Of a DNA stretch of 64,000 nt, positions 20,898-28,628 are shown piece by piece (the stretch's first letter is position 1; each line of letters starts with the position of its first letter). Position numbers and translations under genes: made by a program. Source of the DNA: Microgenomates group bacterium (lineage in GTDB: Bacteria; Patescibacteriota; Microgenomatia; Daviesbacterales; UBA10151); NCBI GenBank assembly GCA_041659805.1, contig JBAZXP010000001.1:448589-512588 (forward strand), given 5' to 3'. The notes under the pieces were generated by a model, which worked only from the letters and a program-made list of their open reading frames with translations, was not told the origin of the DNA and did not search any database.

Positions 20898-21770
20898 ATG
20901 GACCAAGGAAATACTGACCCAAATAATCCAGCTCCGACATTTCCACAACAACCTGTTGTTGGTGGGGAAACAGCTGCGCCTGTAGCTCCTGCTGAAACAC
21001 CAACTCCTCCTGTAGACCAATTTATGGCTGCTCCTGCAGCACCTACACCAGCAGATACTTCTGCTGCAGCTCCTGTGGCAGATGCTCCTGCAAATCCTTG
21101 GGGGGCTCCAACAACACCTACTGCTGAAGCTCCAGTTCCTGCTCCGACGGATGCAACACCACCTCAACCAAGTGTGTTCGGAGGGAGTGCTTCTGCCCTG
21201 GAAGCTGCTCCTGCTGCAGTTCCTGATCCTGCTCAACCAACAGCTTTTAATCCTTTTGCAACTCCTACAGCAGAAGCTGCTCCTGCTTCAACAACTACCG
21301 GCACTGAGGCTGTTCCGACAGACTTAAGCAGCTTGGCAGGTAATTCATCTGAAGCTACTAATTACGTCCCCCCAGCAGAAGCTCCTGTACCCACAGCTCA
21401 ACCTGAATCTTTGGTAACATCAGCACCCGCAGCAGGTGAAGCGTCTCAAGCAGTTACATCAACCGGTGGGGGTGGTTTCCCAAAGATTATATACATAATT
21501 GGTGGAGTAGTATTATTGGTTGTAATTGCAGCATCCGCATATTTTATCTTTGGAGTAGGTAAACCTACTGAGACTTCAACAACAACTTCAGTTCCTGCGA
21601 CTCAAGAACCGGCAACGGCTCCTGCTACTTTTATTCCTCCTCCTGCATCATCACCGTCGTCTGCTTTGCCGGGAAGTACTTCAACTAGTGCTGCAACTCC
21701 AGCAACTGGAGGGTCAGCCTATGATTTATTAAAACAAAGACAATCTGCAACAGGATCAGCTAATCCATAA
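20898..21770 (+). CDS. Pro/Ala/Thr-rich low-complexity protein with one TM helix
   Basis: 290 aa. It has an N-terminal disordered PAT-rich region, a hydrophobic helix IIYIIGGVVLLVVIAASAYFIF, and a C-terminal T/S/P-rich tail. Confidence 0.5.
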   Translation: MDQGNTDPNNPAPTFPQQPVVGGETAAPVAPAETPTPPVDQFMAAPAAPTPADTSAAAPVADAPANPWGAPTTPTAEAPVPAPTDATPPQPSVFGGSASALEAAPAAVPDPAQPTAFNPFATPTAEAAPASTTTGTEAVPTDLSSLAGNSSEATNYVPPAEAPVPTAQPESLVTSAPAAGEASQAVTSTGGGGFPKIIYIIGGVVLLVVIAASAYFIFGVGKPTETSTTTSVPATQEPATAPATFIPPPASSPSSALPGSTSTSAATPATGGSAYDLLKQRQSATGSANP

Positions 21771-22227
21771 GAGTAATTTGACGTGAATCTTCTGTAAGGT
21801 ATTCCAACTCTATTTTTATAATTTTATTTTTAGGTAAATTAGTTATTTTATCTGCCCATTCAATGAGAAAAATATTCTTAGGATTTACAAAAAGATCTGT
21901 TAGTCCTAGGTTATTGATTTGTTGCATGCCTTCCAACCTATAAAGATCAAGGTGATATAGTCTGGCATCAACCTTGTTGGGTATAACGTATTCTCTCATT
22001 AAAACAAAAGTAGGGGAGAGGATTTTAGATTTTATCCCTAAGGCTTTAGCAAAACCTTGGACAAAAGTTGTTTTTCCTGCACCCAAGGGGCCAGTTAAGG
22101 TAATAATTGCGCCATTTTGAAATTTTTGGGCCAAATCTGAGGCTAATTTTTGTGTACTTTCGGCTGAATTTGTAATATATTTTTTCATCTTAAGATTATA
22201 TCCCTTTAAATTTGCCTTTGGCAACAA
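21760..22227 (-). CDS. tsaE: tRNA t6A37 biosynthesis ATPase TsaE (YjeE)
   Basis: 155 aa with a P-loop LTGPLGAGKTTF, and with SPTFVLMREY and HLDLYRL blocks typical of TsaE. Confidence 0.8.
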   Translation of the reverse strand: MLPKANLKGYNLKMKKYITNSAESTQKLASDLAQKFQNGAIITLTGPLGAGKTTFVQGFAKALGIKSKILSPTFVLMREYVIPNKVDARLYHLDLYRLEGMQQINNLGLTDLFVNPKNIFLIEWADKITNLPKNKIIKIELEYLTEDSRQITLMD

Positions 22228-23017
22228 AAGTAAAAACTAAAACCCCTGAAAGAATTAAAATAACCCCTCCTGCAATAAAGATTAAATTCATAAAAGAAAA
22301 TCCGTTTTCTTCCGGTTTTGTGGGTGACGGCGTGGGGCTGGCAGAGGAGGTGGACGAGCCTAAAATAGATGATGGCAAAATTAGATTTGTACCTGACGGA
22401 GACGCTGCATTTTGGGGAGTAGATTTAGTTGGAGTAGAAGTTGGTTTTTTAGTAGGTGTTGAAGTTTTAGTAGGCGTTGGGGTTTTTGTGGGCGTTGGTG
22501 TGGAAGTTGGGGTTTGAGTAGGGGTTGGCGTTTGTGTAGGAGTTGGAGTTTCTGTGGGGGTGGGGGAGGGAACTATGGTTGAAGAATTATTAGAGGATCC
22601 TTTTGAAGGTGAAGAGAAAATAACCCATTCCCCTCCCCCATCAGTTTTACGCCCGGCGGACTGTCCGGAATTTGGCGCAGAAATATCTTTGGAATCTCCG
22701 TAAATAATTTGATCAATTATTTCTCCGGTAGCAGTTGCAACTAATTTAATTGTATCCCCGCCGTTATTCAGTCTATTCGACCAATCAATGGTGCAAAAAT
22801 TTCCACTACAAGTTGCAGTAGATAAGAGTTTAGGATTAGTTCCAAGTGCATCAACTAATTGATAAAGTGAAGTATCAACACTGTCAAAATAAATTTCTAC
22901 CCAATCAGGGTCTCCCATCGAATAAAATTCATTTATTTTAATAGTGCCCGCAAAAACTGGTGAGAAAATAAAAAGAAAACAGAAGATGGATAAAAAAGTT
23001 ACAATAAACTTCTTCAC
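22196..23017 (-). CDS. Secreted/anchored protein with a lamin-tail-like (LTD) domain and a Pro/Thr linker
   Basis: 273 aa with a signal peptide. An LTD-like block IKINEF....DWVEIYF is followed by a (PTxT)n linker of about 45 aa and a C-terminal TM anchor. Confidence 0.55.
   Translation of the reverse strand: MKKFIVTFLSIFCFLFIFSPVFAGTIKINEFYSMGDPDWVEIYFDSVDTSLYQLVDALGTNPKLLSTATCSGNFCTIDWSNRLNNGGDTIKLVATATGEIIDQIIYGDSKDISAPNSGQSAGRKTDGGGEWVIFSSPSKGSSNNSSTIVPSPTPTETPTPTQTPTPTQTPTSTPTPTKTPTPTKTSTPTKKPTSTPTKSTPQNAASPSGTNLILPSSILGSSTSSASPTPSPTKPEENGFSFMNLIFIAGGVILILSGVLVFTFVAKGKFKGI
22430..22565. repeat. Imperfect tandem repeat encoding the Pro/Thr linker
   Basis: The gttgg(a/g)gt(a/t)g / gtagg(c/t)gttg-type units iterate about 8 times, giving PTPTQTPTPT... 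in the minus-strand gene. Confidence 0.6.
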
Positions 23018-23040: not shown

Positions 23041-24255
23041 TTAAAGTATGTGCCAGTAGAGAGTGACTATGCCATTTTGGTGATCAATAATTAGGCCTTT
23101 TCCTGTAGGGCTTCCTCCTGACATCATGTCTGGTGAGCAGGTTGCCTTCATAAAACAATCACAAGTGGCGGATGTTCTATAAGCAATGCCATTGTCTGCA
23201 GCATAAATAGGTCTTCCGAAAAATATTCCGTCTTTGGGTACAATGTCTAAGCCCCAATGGTCTGAATGATAACCTAAAACCTCATAAGTATCGCCATACT
23301 CAGTAGTTATAGTTGTTTCAGCAGGGAAGCCCTGGAGTGGTGGACTGAGTTTTCCGCTGTCCAGATATTTATGCGGATTAACTCTGGTTCCGATAATTCT
23401 TCCTCCCTCTACCTTGGCATTTTCAAATACTTCAAAGTGTAAATGTGGACCTGTTGAACAACCGGTGCTTCCCATTGAGGCGACTAGCTGACCCTTGGTG
23501 ACAGGTCCGACAGTTGGCCCAACATTGGAAATGGCCTGGGCAATAGAATCCTGTTCTGCTTTAAGTTGAACAAGTAAACTTTGGTACACTTTTTCATTGT
23601 TTTTGGTTATTGTAAGCAACTGGCTTTTGGCTTTTTCCTGTTCGTCTAATTGATTTTGATAATTGATCAGGTCTTTTTTTAATTTTTCTGCCTGCTGTTG
23701 ACGTGACTCCTTATCAACTTTTTGGTCATTGTAGGTGGCTTTTGTTGCCTGGAGTTGATATAAAACTTTTTTATCATTGGCCTGGGCAACGGATATATAT
23801 TTTGTCCTGTTAAAAAAATCAGCAAAACCATTGGATGAAAAGAAAAAATCAAAGGCGGAACGACTTCCTTGTTTATAAGTCTGAACAATTCTATTAAGTA
23901 GAACCTGGCTAATAGAATTAAGAGATGAGGAAAGATTAGTAATTCTTATTGATAAGTCACTAATCTCTTTTTCCAGTTTGGCAATTTGGGTGTTTGTTTC
24001 ATCAATTTTTAACTGAGTGAATTTAGTTTTTGAATCAATAAAATTAAGCTGAGACTGCAGAGTTTTATCTTTTTGTTGCTCTTCATTTAAAAGTGCCTGA
24101 CACTGAGCAGTTAAATCAGAAATACAATTATATTTTTTGGTTAAATCTGAATCTGTACACGTAGAGCTGTCATCGCAATTTTGTGCCAAAACAATATTGG
24201 GAGTTAGAAATATAAAGAAGAGGATAAAAATAAAAAAAGTGCGGCAAATCTTCAT
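23041..24255 (-). CDS. Coiled-coil + M23 metallopeptidase (EnvC-like murein hydrolase activator/endopeptidase)
   Basis: 404 aa with a signal peptide and a long coiled-coil. The C-terminal M23 block GSTGCSTGPHLHFEV is present. It lies directly downstream of ftsEX. Confidence 0.8.
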   Translation of the reverse strand: MKICRTFFIFILFFIFLTPNIVLAQNCDDSSTCTDSDLTKKYNCISDLTAQCQALLNEEQQKDKTLQSQLNFIDSKTKFTQLKIDETNTQIAKLEKEISDLSIRITNLSSSLNSISQVLLNRIVQTYKQGSRSAFDFFFSSNGFADFFNRTKYISVAQANDKKVLYQLQATKATYNDQKVDKESRQQQAEKLKKDLINYQNQLDEQEKAKSQLLTITKNNEKVYQSLLVQLKAEQDSIAQAISNVGPTVGPVTKGQLVASMGSTGCSTGPHLHFEVFENAKVEGGRIIGTRVNPHKYLDSGKLSPPLQGFPAETTITTEYGDTYEVLGYHSDHWGLDIVPKDGIFFGRPIYAADNGIAYRTSATCDCFMKATCSPDMMSGGSPTGKGLIIDHQNGIVTLYWHIL

Positions 24256-24277
24256 AAATTTTTAAAACTCGCTACTG

Positions 24278-25504
24278 TTAAAAATTTACCTTATCTATCT
24301 CTGAAATACTATTGAGTGAATATTGGTCTGTAAAATTGATGTTGTGACCGTTGGGTGTGAATGGATCGTTCATTTTATAGTTACCGTTTGATCCGCTAAT
24401 AATAACCATAAAATGAGCAGGTCCTCTGCCTATACCGACAATAACCGGTCGGCCTGCAGAAAGCTCACTATCCAACTCTCCCCTGATTCTTTCTGACGTT
24501 GTCCCGTCAGCAACGATGACTTTATTTAAATAAGCAGGGAAGTATGAAGCAAAATTATTAGGATTAGAATTAATTGTTGTGGGCGTCACCCCTCTGTGGC
24601 CGTAGTGGGTGTAGATCATGGCCATGGATGTTACCAGACAACCGTCGCTTGCGAGTGTATATGATGTTCCATTGAGCGGTAGACCGCCCCATTTTGTATC
24701 CCGTTGATTATAATAACATCCCTTCCACCCGTCATCACAAACTGTCTGATTACTTAAGGGTGTTGCACCTCCTAAAGAAGCAGTAAAGCTGGAAAAAGCT
24801 GCGAGTTGTTCCTGTGCATGGGACAATAATCTTTGGTAAGTTACTTCGTCATTTTGAGTATCTTTTAGGAGTTTATCTTTTGCTTTTTTCTGATCTACCA
24901 GTTGGATCTGATAAGCGTTTAAATCTTTTTTTAATTTTTCTTGTTGTGCTTGTCTTGTTTTTTTGTCTACTTTCTGATCATTGTATGTTGTTTTTGTGGC
25001 CTGCAGTTGGTACAAAACTTTTTTATCATTGGCCTGGGCCACGGATATATATTTAACCTTTCCGATTAAATCAGAGAAACCATGAGAAGAAAAGAACAGA
25101 TCAATTGCAGAATAATTGCCGTATTTATATGTTTCAACGATCCGGTTTAAAAGCACCTGGCTTAGATCATCAACAGTGGCAGATAAACGTACAATTCTGG
25201 TATCTAAATCAACAATTTCATGATCTAATTTTGCAATCTGATTTTCAGCTTCTGCAATTTTTAATTCTGTAACTTTTGCCTGTGTATCAATAAAGTTGAG
25301 CTGTGACTTTAAAGTTTTTTCCTGTCCCTGGGCATCTCTTAATTGTTTTTGATATTTTGCAATTAAATCATTTAAACAGACTGATTTTTTATCATCAGGA
25401 ACATTATTACAGTTATCTTCTTCTGCAAAAACAGGTTGGGTAAGAAAAACAGAGGTTGTTAAAAGAAGTGTTAAAAACATGAGAAAAATTGCTGCTTTTT
25501 TCAT
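24278..25504 (-). CDS. Coiled-coil + papain-like (C39-like/CHAP-like) cysteine peptidase; PcsB-like
   Basis: 408 aa. Its coiled-coil N-terminus is near-identical in places to 23041..24255. The C-terminal domain has Cys in DGCLVTSMAMIYTHYG and His in GPAHFMVI. Confidence 0.6.
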   Translation of the reverse strand: MKKAAIFLMFLTLLLTTSVFLTQPVFAEEDNCNNVPDDKKSVCLNDLIAKYQKQLRDAQGQEKTLKSQLNFIDTQAKVTELKIAEAENQIAKLDHEIVDLDTRIVRLSATVDDLSQVLLNRIVETYKYGNYSAIDLFFSSHGFSDLIGKVKYISVAQANDKKVLYQLQATKTTYNDQKVDKKTRQAQQEKLKKDLNAYQIQLVDQKKAKDKLLKDTQNDEVTYQRLLSHAQEQLAAFSSFTASLGGATPLSNQTVCDDGWKGCYYNQRDTKWGGLPLNGTSYTLASDGCLVTSMAMIYTHYGHRGVTPTTINSNPNNFASYFPAYLNKVIVADGTTSERIRGELDSELSAGRPVIVGIGRGPAHFMVIISGSNGNYKMNDPFTPNGHNINFTDQYSLNSISEIDKVNF

Positions 25505-25510
25505 CTAAAT

Positions 25511-26386
25511 TTAGATATGTAAATAACGGCGGACAGCAATGAATGAGCCGATTGCTCCGACAAGTGCTGCGACCAGAAGGTTTGACAATAAAAATAGCAG
25601 CATAACAATTATCGGAATAGGGAATATCACTGCAGCAACTTCTCCTAAATTGTTTAAAAGTAGCGGCTCAAAATACCACAGAATCGCAAAACTGGTCAGC
25701 CATCCGAGGAACGCACCCATGGTGGCATAAAAAATACCTTCAAGCAAAAAAGGCAATCTGATAAACCAATTTGATGCTCCCAAAAGTTTCATAGTTTCTA
25801 TCTCATCTCTTTTTATCCTGATTTTAAATCCAATAATCATCACTGTAATTAAAATTGAGAATGAAATTAGAAATAACACGACAGCTCCACCTACTACTCT
25901 GATTAAACGGGTTGCAGAGCTTAAAGAAGCCACAACATCTTCCGGGAAAACCACCTCTTCCACCACAGGTTCTTTTTTAACAATGTCAGCAATTGGTTTT
26001 AAATCTTCCGGAGTGTATGTTGAAATCTCGAGGGACGCAGGAAGGATATTGGCTGTAACGAGTTCCAATAGCATTGGGTTGGCTTTATTGCGGTCACGGT
26101 AAATTTGCAAGGCGTCTTCTTTGGAAACATACTTAAATTTGGCAATTTTCCCTGTTTTTTCCAAAGCATTTTGTATTGCTTTAACGTCATTAATTGTGGT
26201 TCCGTCTTTGAAAAAAGCTATAGCCTGAGGTTTACTTTCGTAATAATTTAAGATTTGCTGGGAACCTGTGGCAAGCAGTAAAAAGCTGGAAAGAACCAAA
26301 AAGGTTAAAAACATTACCATTAAAGCAGCTAATGCCTGATATGGAGTTCTTCTGATGTTTCTTCTTGTGAGTGTAAAAAAGTTCAT
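25511..26386 (-). CDS. ftsX: Cell-division ABC transporter permease FtsX
   Basis: 291 aa with an N-terminal TM, a large extracytoplasmic loop, and three C-terminal TMs forming the FtsX fold. Confidence 0.85.
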   Translation of the reverse strand: MNFFTLTRRNIRRTPYQALAALMVMFLTFLVLSSFLLLATGSQQILNYYESKPQAIAFFKDGTTINDVKAIQNALEKTGKIAKFKYVSKEDALQIYRDRNKANPMLLELVTANILPASLEISTYTPEDLKPIADIVKKEPVVEEVVFPEDVVASLSSATRLIRVVGGAVVLFLISFSILITVMIIGFKIRIKRDEIETMKLLGASNWFIRLPFLLEGIFYATMGAFLGWLTSFAILWYFEPLLLNNLGEVAAVIFPIPIIVMLLFLLSNLLVAALVGAIGSFIAVRRYLHI

Positions 26387-26389
26387 AGA

Positions 26390-27070
26390 TTAATGAGAAT
26401 AACCTCCTCCTTTGATATCTTTTATAATTTTACCGCCTTTTAAAGATACCACCCTTCTTTTTTGAGTATCAACAATTTCTTTGTTGTGGGTGGCCATAAG
26501 TACTGTAGTTCCCCAGGAATTAATTTCAATCAGAAGCTGTAAAACTGACCAGGCAGTTTCAGGATCCAAATCTCCTGTCGGCTCATCTGCCAGTAAAATT
26601 TCCGGTTTGCCGATAATCGCCCGGGCAATAGCTGTGCGTTGAGCCTCTCCTCCGGAAAGTTGTCTGGGAAAAAGATTCCGTCTGCCCCAGATATCAAAAA
26701 GCTTTAAGGTTCTTTCTACTTCTTTAGCAATTTCTACGTCACTTACTCCTCTAACATGTAGAGGAAGGGCAACATTTTCTAAAACAGTTCTATCATCCAG
26801 TAACTTAAAATCCTGGAATACAAAACCGACCTTTCGTCGGTAAAAGGGGACTTCACCGGATTTGAGTTTGGAAATATCCTGATTATCAACTAAAATTTTG
26901 CCTGTGGTGGGTAAATATTCACGGGCAAGAAGTCTTAGCAATGTGGATTTACCGGCGCCGGATGGCCCTACAAGGAAAACAAATTCACCGTTTTCTATAT
27001 TAAGATTAATATCTTCCAGGGCTGTGATATTTGTCGTAAATTTTTTTGTGACATTTTGAAATGAAACCAT
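26390..27070 (-). CDS. ftsE: Cell-division ABC transporter ATP-binding protein FtsE
   Basis: 226 aa with Walker A GPSGAGKST, signature LSGGEAQRTAIARA and Walker B ILLADEPT. Confidence 0.9.
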   Translation of the reverse strand: MVSFQNVTKKFTTNITALEDINLNIENGEFVFLVGPSGAGKSTLLRLLAREYLPTTGKILVDNQDISKLKSGEVPFYRRKVGFVFQDFKLLDDRTVLENVALPLHVRGVSDVEIAKEVERTLKLFDIWGRRNLFPRQLSGGEAQRTAIARAIIGKPEILLADEPTGDLDPETAWSVLQLLIEINSWGTTVLMATHNKEIVDTQKRRVVSLKGGKIIKDIKGGGYSH

Positions 27071-27085
27071 ATTATTAGGGGCGAG

Positions 27086-27520
27086 TTATTGTAACTCTAC
27101 TTTACCTACATCCATTAACCAACCTTCTTTCATAGCTTTTTGTGTTTCCCCAAAAACTTTAACCTTTTTGCCTTCGTATTGGCTGAGGTCAACAACTGAT
27201 GAAGTTAAGGCAACAGGGGTTGCTCCGATTCTGATAAGTAGATGTGTGCCTTCTACATAATCATTAGGCTTTTTGGGTGCCACCTGTTTTTGAATGGTTC
27301 CTTCTGCAAAATCGCGGAATGTTTTGGAATCCTGGCTGGCTACTTTGGCTTGGATGGTTGAGCCTTGCGTGGCAGCTTGCTGGCTGGTTTTACCTGAGTT
27401 TGATATTAAATAACCTGCAACTATTCCGAGTACAACAGAAGCTATTAATACACCCAAAAATATTTTGTTGATATTGTCTACTTTCAGATATTTTAAAGGA
27501 GTATTGGCAGTCAGTTCCAT
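27086..27520 (-). CDS. Hypothetical membrane-anchored protein
   Basis: 144 aa with one N-terminal TM helix. It sits between prfB and ftsE. Confidence 0.4.
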   Translation of the reverse strand: MELTANTPLKYLKVDNINKIFLGVLIASVVLGIVAGYLISNSGKTSQQAATQGSTIQAKVASQDSKTFRDFAEGTIQKQVAPKKPNDYVEGTHLLIRIGATPVALTSSVVDLSQYEGKKVKVFGETQKAMKEGWLMDVGKVELQ

Positions 27521-27536
27521 TAATCTATTCTACAAG

Positions 27537-28628
27537 TTAGCAGTTGCTTTTGTCCAGTGTCCTTATTTCAGCCTCAATAAAATCCTGTAAATCACCATCT
27601 AAAACAGCATCTGTATTGGAAGTTTCCACATCAGTGCGCAAGTCTTTGACCATATGATATGGATGCAGAACATAAGATCTGATTTGGGTGCCCCAGGAAG
27701 CCTGCCTATTTTCTCCTTTTAAATCTTCTGTTGTTTGTTTTTCCTGAGATTGCTGCAGAGCCCAAAGTTTTGCTTTCAGTAAAGCCATGGCATTTTCCCT
27801 GTTTTGCAGCTGAGACCTTTCTGTTTGGGCTGTTACCACAATCCCAGATGGTAAATGTTTCACCCGAACAGCTGTATTAACTTTATTAACATTTTGTCCT
27901 CCTGCCCCTCCTGATCTGAAAGCTTCAAATTCAACATCTGCAGGATTTATTTCTATTTCTGCGTCTCCTTCTATAACAGGCAAAACCTCAACCAGACAAA
28001 AAGAAGTCTGCCTTAGCTTATCAGCGTTAAAAGGGGATTGTCTGACCAGTCTGTGGGTGCCTGCTTCACCTTTTAAATACCCATAAGCAAAAGGTGTGTG
28101 AACTATCATAGAAATGGATTTAATACCCGCTTCTTCACCCATATCTTCGTTGGTAATTTCAAATTCCCAGCCTACACGATCAAAAAACCTTTGGTACATG
28201 CGTGAAACCATGCCTGCCCAATCCATAGCCTCCACTCCTCCTGCACCTGAATGAACAGATAAAATTGCCTCAGAGGCGTCCCGCGGACCTGATAAAAATA
28301 GCTGCATTTCCAGTGCGTCTAAAGTTTTGGTTAAATCCCGGGATTCTTTGGATAAATCTTCTTTCATTGATTCCTCGTCGCTCATTTCCAGTGCATCTTC
28401 AATTCTTTGTTCTAAACCTTCCAGGGTATTAAGCAGTTTTTGTTTTTGGGACAGCGCCTGGGAAACTTTTTTTGCTGTCTGGGAATCATTCCAAAAACCG
28501 GGTTTGTTCATTTCTACTTCCAGTTCCCTGATCTCACCCTGAATTTTATCTCTGTCAAATTGGGCAGAAATTTTTCCAAATCTGTCTTTTAAATTTTTTA
28601 AACTATCTTTAATTTCTTCCATGGGCAA
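27537..28628 (-). CDS. prfB: Peptide chain release factor 2
   Basis: 363 aa with the SPF tripeptide (VRQSPFNA) and the GGQ motif (SGGAGGQNVNK). The ORF is uninterrupted, with no +1 frameshift site. Confidence 0.9.
   Translation of the reverse strand: MPMEEIKDSLKNLKDRFGKISAQFDRDKIQGEIRELEVEMNKPGFWNDSQTAKKVSQALSQKQKLLNTLEGLEQRIEDALEMSDEESMKEDLSKESRDLTKTLDALEMQLFLSGPRDASEAILSVHSGAGGVEAMDWAGMVSRMYQRFFDRVGWEFEITNEDMGEEAGIKSISMIVHTPFAYGYLKGEAGTHRLVRQSPFNADKLRQTSFCLVEVLPVIEGDAEIEINPADVEFEAFRSGGAGGQNVNKVNTAVRVKHLPSGIVVTAQTERSQLQNRENAMALLKAKLWALQQSQEKQTTEDLKGENRQASWGTQIRSYVLHPYHMVKDLRTDVETSNTDAVLDGDLQDFIEAEIRTLDKSNC

Follow-up and report, generated by a model that had tools for sequence, protein, structure and literature searches.

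A Microgenomates ftsEX locus with two secreted coiled-coil peptidases, one with a C39_2 head and one with a circularly permuted M23 head

FtsEX-controlled cleavage of the cell wall is a central and intensively studied step of cell division, and both the recognition of partners by FtsX and the evolution of these partners remain open questions. A 64,000-nt stretch of DNA from a Microgenomates group bacterium, which we call the window and in which all coordinates are given, raises both of them. Behind a single ftsE-ftsX pair lie two genes for secreted proteins that combine a coiled coil (CC) with a catalytic head, a cysteine peptidase in the first and an M23 metallopeptidase in the second. What would one FtsEX do with two such proteins? 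An original prediction, made from the sequence alone, had given the gene order as prfB, a gene for a 144-aa protein, ftsE, ftsX, the CC-cysteine peptidase and the CC-M23 peptidase. This order is exact, all coordinates of the open reading frames (ORFs) match, and the general architecture, in which FtsEX precedes two secreted CC proteins whose catalytic heads differ, is borne out by Pfam. The reading that we favour, with fair confidence, is that FtsEX gates both enzymes as peptidoglycan hydrolases, and that the two compete for a single FtsX dimer, in a Microgenomates (Daviesbacteria-like) division module.

Two unrelated catalytic heads

Judged from its sequence, the M23 domain is circularly permuted and catalytically complete. 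It belongs to Peptidase_M23 (PF01551) by its motifs, HWGLD at residues 333–337 and HLH at residues 271–273, both invariant, and by a score of 45.7 against a cut-off of 28.7. Instead of the canonical M23 order (HxxxD, Y-x-H, HxH), the HxH half precedes the HxxxD...YWH half. From the coiled coil the chain passes straight into VTKGQLVASMGSTGCSTGPHLHFEV, a segment with which an M23 domain normally ends; the permuted chain begins at the segment that usually comes after ‘YaHL’, and the protein terminates with LYWHIL, which normally lies mid-domain. As a result, the native protein aligns to the 96-position Pfam profile over positions 62–91 only, at residues 251–280, and its C-terminal piece, taken alone, over positions 3–52. 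When residues 306–404 are placed before residues 241–300, a single continuous match to profile positions 3–91 is obtained (58 bits), and the re-ordered sequence aligns unbroken over the artificial junction to solved M23 peptidases, e.g., Csd3 (4rny; E 1e-9). The order of the halves is identical in every FtsX-linked M23 protein of the clade, very divergent ones included.

The catalytic set of LytM consists of H210, D214, H260, H291 and H293. By analogy, we take that of the M23 protein to be H333, D337, H402, H271 and H273. Among 72 homologues H271, H273, H333 and D337 are invariant and H402 is conserved in at least 90 %; all five are also kept in the M23 proteins of relatives that encode both enzymes at one locus (L004, L007, L019, L020, L052 and L063). 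His392, in the motif DHQNG, had been considered as the equivalent of LytM His260 and was rejected in favour of His402 (YWH), which is kept everywhere. In the AlphaFold2 (AF2) model (predicted local distance difference test, pLDDT, 81.9) two helices (residues 37–129 and 142–242) lead to a beta domain at residues 244–403. The EnvC-type label that the original prediction attached to this protein does not suit an enzyme that keeps all catalytic residues in a circularly permuted domain.

How common is this arrangement? A search with the M23 head alone against 1.84 billion cluster representatives gave 2940 matches at E<=0.001 and 36 at <=1e-10. About 45 of the best 150 matches run in a single stretch, end to end, at the C-terminus of proteins of ~380–420 aa, so that the permuted form makes up a modest but coherent family. 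Given the ‘duplicated hybrid motif’ fold of M23, a swap of its halves is structurally plausible. Moreover, three proteins (P0257, P0263 and P0274) have two tandem canonical M23 domains, and the permuted query aligns over their domain junction; such tandem proteins can represent the classical kind of permutation intermediate, from which the permuted form arises by loss of both ends. A permuted M23 or LytM domain was not found described in the literature searched. Since the permutation leaves only 30 M23 residues visible to standard profiles, such proteins are easily mis-annotated or confused with degenerate LytM factors. Database labels on proteins of these two kinds range from ‘peptidoglycan DD-metalloendopeptidase family protein’, ‘C39 family peptidase’ and ‘CwlO-like’ to hypothetical.

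Some further features of the M23 proteins may be mentioned here. C266 (in STGCSTGPHLH) and C365 (in an insertion within the HxxxD half) are both invariant; a disulfide between them could hold the permuted halves together like a staple. Four cysteines are found at the N-terminus of the M23 protein and two in its C39 paralogue. The M23 paralogues at L004:8285-9526 and L007:7149-8414 form a long branch and carry an insertion of ~20 aa after HxH; they have lost the conserved histidine of ‘DHQNG’ while retaining the five catalytic residues. In this lineage, which has both enzymes, their function may have become relaxed or may have shifted.

The cysteine peptidase starts with a signal peptide, followed by a helical hairpin and then by a papain-like head that contains Gln267, Cys289, His364 and Asp380. 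Its AF2 model (pLDDT 87.5) shows helices at residues 36–58, 64–127, 142–215 and 219–242, followed by an alpha/beta domain. The head matches Peptidase_C39_2 (PF13529, clan CA) with 29.8–32.5 bits against a cut-off of 24. The same family is matched by 37 out of 37 aligned homologues (best E 5e-10), 17 of which also match Peptidase_C39, and no Pfam match to CHAP or NlpC/P60 was obtained in any of them. Q267 (GCYYNQRD), C289 (SDGCLVTSMAM), H364 (HF) and D380 (NDP) are invariant in alignments of 73 and of 37 homologues. Foldseek matches of the model include the C39 domain of ComA (3k8u) and a C39-like protein of B. anthracis (3erv). A phmmer search of the PDB sequences with the head was empty, and a profile search of the PDB yielded marginal C39-like matches only (E 0.01–0.07). 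The papain-like Cys/His domain of the original prediction is thus real, given the C39_2 match and the invariant Gln-Cys-His-Asp set: the C-terminal domain encoded by 24278..25504 does have its dyad, Cys289 and His364. Among the three families that had been proposed for it, Pfam decides for C39_2 and against both CHAP and NlpC/P60. The label PcsB-type, in turn, has to be abandoned, since the head of PcsB is a CHAP domain.

Distribution of the enzymes and descent of their coiled coils

The C39 enzyme is encoded in 347 species-level genomes, and 80 loci were kept for the locus counts. ftsX lies directly upstream of the C39 gene in 69 of the 78 loci that could be assessed, and a permuted M23 gene lies directly downstream of it in 5 of the 69 that could be assessed on that side (L007, L019, L020, L052 and L063). 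In all 43 metagenome loci of the M23 gene that have enough upstream DNA to be assessed, ftsX directly precedes the M23 gene and a C39 gene is lacking. Similarly, Daviesbacteria-like loci (L001–L003 and a JGI contig) have the order prfB, small gene, ftsE, ftsX, CC-M23, LTD, tsaE, without C39. In dozens of lineages one or the other enzyme stands by itself directly behind ftsX, so that each is the positional FtsX partner of its lineage. The tandem state is rare, most relatives carrying one enzyme after ftsX. It is found in the window, in L087, L088, L004, L007, L019, L020, L052 and L063, always in the order C39 then M23.

A C39 gene without ftsEX within 6 kb occurs in L008, L034, L045, L078, L084 and L086, so that some genomes whose ftsEX locus has M23 only may hold an unlinked C39 copy. 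The unlinked C39 proteins of L008 and L045 bear a Daviesbacteria-type coiled coil. The genes inserted between ftsX and C39 in L009 and L026 were considered as a third type of cassette and rejected, neither being a coiled-coil hydrolase: L009:4329-5870 codes for a 513-aa PMT-like membrane glycosyltransferase and L026:5570-5947 for a PIN-domain toxin, both foreign insertions. Many of the metagenome-assembled genome records with a C39 locus (e.g., L007, L010 and L015) are titled ‘uncultured Gammaproteobacteria bacterium’; the content of these loci is Microgenomates-like and the label is probably a default or a mistake.

How, then, did two unrelated heads come to sit on one scaffold? The long shared coiled coil with near-identical blocks that had been noticed in the sequence is confirmed by protein and DNA alignment. 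The two hydrolases align at 54 % identity over residues 29–266 (E 2e-71), with 54–59 % identity between the coiled coils. Identity varies along the chain, from 62 % at residues 105–128 and 48 % at 129–151 to 97 % at 152–180 (KYISVAQANDKKVLYQLQATK.TYNDQKV, 28 out of 29 residues), and drops to 0 % after residue 231.

Descent of the coiled coil follows the genome rather than the head. The coiled coil of the C39 protein of the window has a median identity of 58 % to the coiled coils of the M23 family versus 36 % to those of other C39 proteins, and scores 285 with the M-type hidden Markov model (HMM) versus 190 with the C-type. An M-type coiled coil is present in 13 of 73 C39 proteins, the distribution being bimodal. 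By HMM typing, both paralogues of the window, L004 and L007 have a coiled coil of the Daviesbacteria type and both paralogues of L019, L020, L052 and L063 one of the Levybacteria type, and within each lineage both paralogues have the lineage-specific version of the 152–180 motif. In a neighbour-joining (NJ) tree of the coiled coils (200 bootstraps) the Daviesbacteria-type clade, which includes both kinds of enzyme, has a bootstrap value of 100 % and monophyly of the M23-protein coiled coils one of 0 %. The L063 pair are sisters (98.5 %), and the six coiled coils of L019, L020 and L052 form one clade (81 %), inside which those linked to M23 and those linked to C39 each cluster by orthologue. 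In addition, the proteins are mosaics. The C39 protein of the window is similar to Daviesbacteria M23 proteins as far as about residue 210 and, from residue 226 onward, to Levybacteria C39 proteins, the M23 protein of L019 is the reverse mosaic, and both cross over at the conserved “NDE..YQxLL” (residues ~211–225).

These patterns support module exchange or concerted evolution, and not simple vertical descent, as the origin of the shared coiled coil. The coiled coil would stay with the genome, presumably together with its FtsX, and the cassettes would be exchangeable at a fixed junction just past NDE..YQxLL. Exchange or homogenisation must be older than the splits between close relatives, because no homogenisation has occurred since and because the coiled coils of L019, L020 and L052 group by orthologue; the events are younger, on the other hand, than the split between Daviesbacteria and Levybacteria. 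The dual state may descend from an ancestral C39-M23 tandem whose coiled coils were homogenised by old conversion and one partner of which was lost in most lineages. The other possible origin is duplication of the local coiled coil, onto which a cassette would then have been captured on repeated occasions.

The original prediction had proposed duplication with domain swap or ongoing gene conversion, in part from a 40-nt stretch identical in the two genes. The stretch is real, but measures 41 nt with one mismatch between the copies, and lies 4–6 nt from where it had been placed. A match of this kind did not occur in any of 100 shuffles of the window. No peptide of the whole family is more conserved than the one that the block encodes. 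In a second test, codons were exchanged only between positions at which the two proteins agree, and only within one amino acid. A run as long as 41 nt with at most one mismatch arose in 0.3 % of 2000 such permutations (P ~0.003), so that local synonymous identity exceeds what the conserved peptide alone predicts. The same procedure gave P 0.001 for L063, and the other five pairs were not significant at 0.05 (L019 was borderline, P = 0.069); near-identical runs of 16–41 nt occur in five other dual loci, in four of which they are not significant.

Is the block then a tract of recent or ongoing conversion between the tandem genes, or even an assembly artefact? This local clustering of synonymous identity in the window and in L063 would fit conversion, as would one codon that co-varies within genomes, being ATA in both paralogues of the window and ATT in both of L087. 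However, the block is 79–95 % identical in DNA among all six genes of three species (window, L087 and L088) and uses common AT-rich codons. Over the coiled coil only 55–57 % of the identical residues share a codon between paralogues, and paralogue nucleotide identity is alike in the three species (0.61–0.64), as compared to 0.72–0.89 between their orthologues; L087 and L088 show 91 % and 76 % protein identity. Since an identity of ~0.64 is found in all three, the paralogues have not been homogenised since these species split, and their synonymous sites look close to saturated. Recent or ongoing conversion was rejected as the principal explanation on these grounds, while the original proposal, taken broadly as domain swap or conversion, agrees with the CC trees and the mosaics. 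An artefact is contradicted by the tandem pair in the independent assemblies L087 and L088 and by a 100 %-identical copy of the C39_2 product (98 % of its length) on an 837-kb ENA contig (P0121). Taken together, we consider recent conversion or an artefact quite improbable. The block itself may still be a short, old conversion tract or the result of a constraint at the nucleotide level.

One FtsX dimer and two putative partners

The pair downstream of ftsEX has the architecture of FtsEX-coupled hydrolases or activators. Both proteins have signal-peptide-like N-termini, and in the AF2 models long helical hairpins precede the globular heads; the hairpin tip is of low confidence in both models (about residues 129–141). 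With Foldseek, both models match EnvC of the V. cholerae FtsEX-EnvC complex (8tzl_E, the top match), EnvC 6tpi_A, PcsB 4cgk and the N-terminal part of RipA (6ewy), and the C39_2 model alone matches 8idc_E, a chain of the FtsEX/RipC complex. These comparisons are dominated by the coiled coil, which keeps the E-values weak.

According to three reports, the extracellular domains of FtsX in characterised systems clamp the tip of the partner coiled coil with an FtsX:hydrolase ratio of 2:1, and the interface is the conserved part of that coiled coil (PMC9897464, PMC11627006, PMC7668044). The two paralogues of the window are most alike on the two helices that flank the hairpin tip (62 % and 97 %). 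Following these systems, FtsE and FtsX would act as the usual ABC-type mechanotransmitter, and each partner would combine a helical-hairpin coiled coil with a catalytic cassette. The two partners would use one and the same FtsX dimer and exclude each other from it, with one hairpin per dimer. The ATPase cycle of FtsE would then release or position either head, so that two peptide-bond chemistries could be switched on at the septum. Since both heads have full catalytic sets, each enzyme probably cleaves peptidoglycan peptides itself, the bonds that are cut differing between the two; we infer that both are direct hydrolases like PcsB, CwlO and RipC and not activators like EnvC. A wider proposal is that the FtsEX partners of Microgenomates form a two-part kit, an FtsX-locked coiled coil plus an exchangeable C39_2 or permuted-M23 cassette, the exchange or homogenisation having taken place repeatedly at a single fixed junction, with one FtsEX driving two chemistries through competing partners in a few lineages; this we put forward tentatively, as a possibility on the doubtful side.

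Several points weigh against competition of two hydrolases for one FtsX. The case for FtsX binding by both proteins is drawn from synteny and from the lineage-matched coiled coils. At the hairpin tip, taken as residues 129–151, the paralogues share an identity of only 48 %, and pLDDT is low there. In the NJ tree, the two coiled coils of the window group as sisters with a bootstrap value of only 28.5 %. An NJ tree of the C39 domains separates the protein of the window from those of L004 and L007, with which it shares a diagnostic deletion; as this tree is unstable for the window protein, it was not used to choose between an ancestral pair and cassette capture. Finally, an experimentally characterised C39_2 muralytic enzyme or peptidoglycan hydrolase was not found in the literature searched.

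The last point lends some weight to the idea that the C39_2 head is a protein-processing protease, as classical C39 domains cleave leader peptides, and that it matures, for example, the LTD-like protein encoded downstream. The matches of 17 of the 37 homologues to classical Peptidase_C39 and the Foldseek match to the leader-peptidase domain of ComA agree with this. We nevertheless think it unlikely, since the C39_2 head occupies the exact position and scaffold taken by CHAP, NlpC/P60 and M23 domains in PcsB, CwlO, RipC and EnvC, and since it is interchangeable with an M23 peptidase at this locus; moreover, C39-like cysteine-protease domains are predicted as catalytic modules of mycobacteriophage endolysins (PMC3314691). 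The M23 protein, for its part, could be a non-catalytic activator in the manner of EnvC. The hydrolase that it switches on might then be an amidase or the C39 enzyme encoded next to it. EnvC is the best NCBIfam model on the M23 coiled coil, although far below threshold (35 bits versus 270), as well as the best Foldseek match of the model. However, the zinc and catalytic residues that EnvC lacks are conserved family-wide, with the assignment by LytM analogy given above, and most genomes encode the M23 protein alone behind ftsX, without a C39 partner. Such a role is therefore very improbable.

The remaining alternative concerns the coupling itself. Only one of the two proteins may be coupled to FtsEX while the coiled coil of the other serves a different regulator, or the two coiled coils may heterodimerise to give one complex with both heads. 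A precedent exists: RipA and RipC both have an N-terminal coiled coil, and only RipC is regulated by FtsX (PMC9897464). In Corynebacteriales, RipA uses SteA/SteB instead. The C39 genes that lie apart from ftsEX in relatives and the difference in the tip loop between the paralogues also point in this direction. On the other hand, each type of enzyme directly follows ftsX when alone, and the coiled coils of both paralogues track the genome lineage, as expected if both must fit the same FtsX; in addition, steA- or steB-like genes were not seen in the locus (ORF list and Pfam). We thus hold coupling of a single enzyme, or a joint complex, to be rather unlikely, and retain two FtsEX-gated hydrolases as the preferred explanation.

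Gene neighbourhood and known FtsEX systems

The features discussed are collected in Table 1. The adjacent ftsE and ftsX genes qualify as FtsEX, a type VII ABC mechanotransmitter, all three Pfam domains (ABC_tran, FtsX_ECD and FtsX) exceeding their cut-offs. The best PDB sequence matches of FtsX are the FtsX proteins of V. cholerae, E. coli, P. aeruginosa and M. tuberculosis, and solved FtsX proteins are the only ones matched. With 169 bits it falls under the equivalog cut-off of the NCBIfam model FtsX_Gneg (255) and is therefore a divergent member. Because the intergenic gaps across the module are 3–23 nt (3 nt between the end of ftsE and ftsX), all genes are co-directional, and promoter- and terminator-like sites do not exceed chance in a sequence scan of the module, the whole has the appearance of one operon. 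The nearest named homologues come from Candidatus Daviesbacteria and other Microgenomates.

Table 1. Position of the genes, protein modules and repeated block at the ftsEX locus of the window
Feature	Position	Strand	Residues and remarks
prfB (RF2)	27537-28628	minus	
144-aa ORF	27086..27520	minus	one N-terminal transmembrane helix + extracytoplasmic domain
ftsE, ABC ATPase	26390..27070	minus	Pfam ABC_tran, E 9e-37
ftsX, permease-like with extracellular domain	25511..26386	minus	Pfam FtsX_ECD, E 8e-16; FtsX, E 2e-13
Secreted CC + C39_2 cysteine peptidase, 408 aa	24278..25504	minus	Pfam Peptidase_C39_2 (residues 264-381) + CC_PcsB
CC module of C39 protein (presumed FtsX-docking)	24830..25375	minus	residues ~44-225
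C39_2 catalytic cassette	24278..24829	minus	residues 226-408; includes the last, cassette-specific helix
Secreted CC + circularly permuted M23 metallopeptidase, 404 aa	23041..24255	minus	Pfam Peptidase_M23 + CC_PcsB
CC module of M23 protein (presumed FtsX-docking)	23578..24123	minus	residues ~45-226
HxH half of M23 domain (H271, H273)	23356..23502	minus	residues 252-300; C-terminal half in canonical M23
HxxxD...YWH half of M23 domain (H333, D337, H402)	23044..23340	minus	residues 306-404; N-terminal half in canonical M23
41-nt block, copy 1, M23 gene	23762..23802	minus	encodes KYISVAQANDKKV
41-nt block, copy 2, C39 gene	25014..25054	minus	
LTD-like secreted protein	22196..23017	minus	weak Pfam LTD match

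Searches of Pfam, NCBIfam and PHROGs gave no match for the 144-aa protein. In 64 of the 70 related loci that hold ftsE, and also in L001–L005, the gene directly upstream of ftsE is a homologue, which makes the protein a candidate accessory component, possibly an unrecognised third one, of the FtsEX module of Microgenomates. Downstream of the M23 gene follow the gene for the protein with a lamin-tail-like domain (LTD), secreted and provided with a Pro/Thr-rich linker and a C-terminal membrane anchor, and then tsaE and secA. LTD proteins also come after the hydrolase gene or genes in L001–L004, L006, L009, L026 and others (e.g., L009:7203-8441 and L026:7301-8590). Between tsaE and secA, a 290-aa ORF on the plus strand (20898-21770) codes for a Pro/Ala/Thr-rich low-complexity product with a C-terminal hydrophobic segment and accounts for a local rise in G+C to 0.41; L001–L003 have a gene of ~300 aa without Pfam match at the equivalent position. 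The sequence of prfB appears to form a single frame that opens with TTG, and the programmed +1 frameshift site usual in this gene is not evident in it.

CPR (candidate phyla radiation) bacteria have no outer membrane. In this they resemble the hosts of FtsEX-PcsB (S. pneumoniae), FtsEX-CwlO (B. subtilis) and FtsEX-RipC (M. tuberculosis). Both coiled coils of the window match Pfam CC_PcsB just under threshold, and the structural matches 4cgk and 8idc_E are in keeping with this likeness. However, the NCBIfam PcsB model gives 16–18 bits against a cut-off of 450, and the heads of PcsB, CwlO and RipC are CHAP or NlpC/P60 domains, whereas the window has C39_2. The coiled coil is a simple two-helix hairpin, and the adjacent gene codes for another partner, whose head is a metallopeptidase. 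The likeness to EnvC of E. coli and Vibrio cholerae lies in the CC hairpin joined to a domain of the M23/LytM family, together with FtsEX, and EnvC is the best Foldseek match of both models. The LytM domain that EnvC carries is catalytically dead and activates amidases, as described in PMC7668044 and PMC11627006. By contrast, the M23 domain of the window keeps all catalytic residues, is permuted, and does not belong with the degenerate LytM domains. With respect to canonical M23 peptidases (LytM, lysostaphin, Csd3 and ShyA), the motifs HxxxD, Y-x-H and HxH are the same and the halves are reversed.

Tandem paralogous CC hydrolases of the FtsEX type are already known from Corynebacteriales. PMC9897464 describes the tandem duplicates RipC and RipC' (cg2401/cg2402 and DIP1621/DIP1622) as syntenic members of the FtsEX-regulated clade, with a conserved CC tip predicted to bind the FtsX dimer 2:1. 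RipC and RipC' have the same NlpC/P60 head, whereas the pair in the window joins unrelated catalytic classes, and it is the coiled coil and not the head that tracks the lineage. A paper on FtsEX partners in CPR was not found in the literature searched. What is new at this locus, then, is the presence of two unrelated heads on one coiled coil, a C39_2 head, an M23 domain that is both permuted and intact, and a lineage-locked coiled coil with exchangeable cassettes.

If the wider proposal of a two-part kit holds, no circularly permuted M23 peptidase would have been described before this one, and FtsEX would have its first effector of the C39_2 type. The locus would add two catalytic modules to the repertoire of FtsEX. 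It also amounts to a natural swap experiment, in which the same coiled coil carries two unrelated enzymes in one genome and the same enzymes sit on another coiled coil elsewhere, so that docking specificity is directly testable by exchanging coiled coils between lineages. For CPR bacteria themselves, the locus is one of the few concrete leads on how the cell wall is split.

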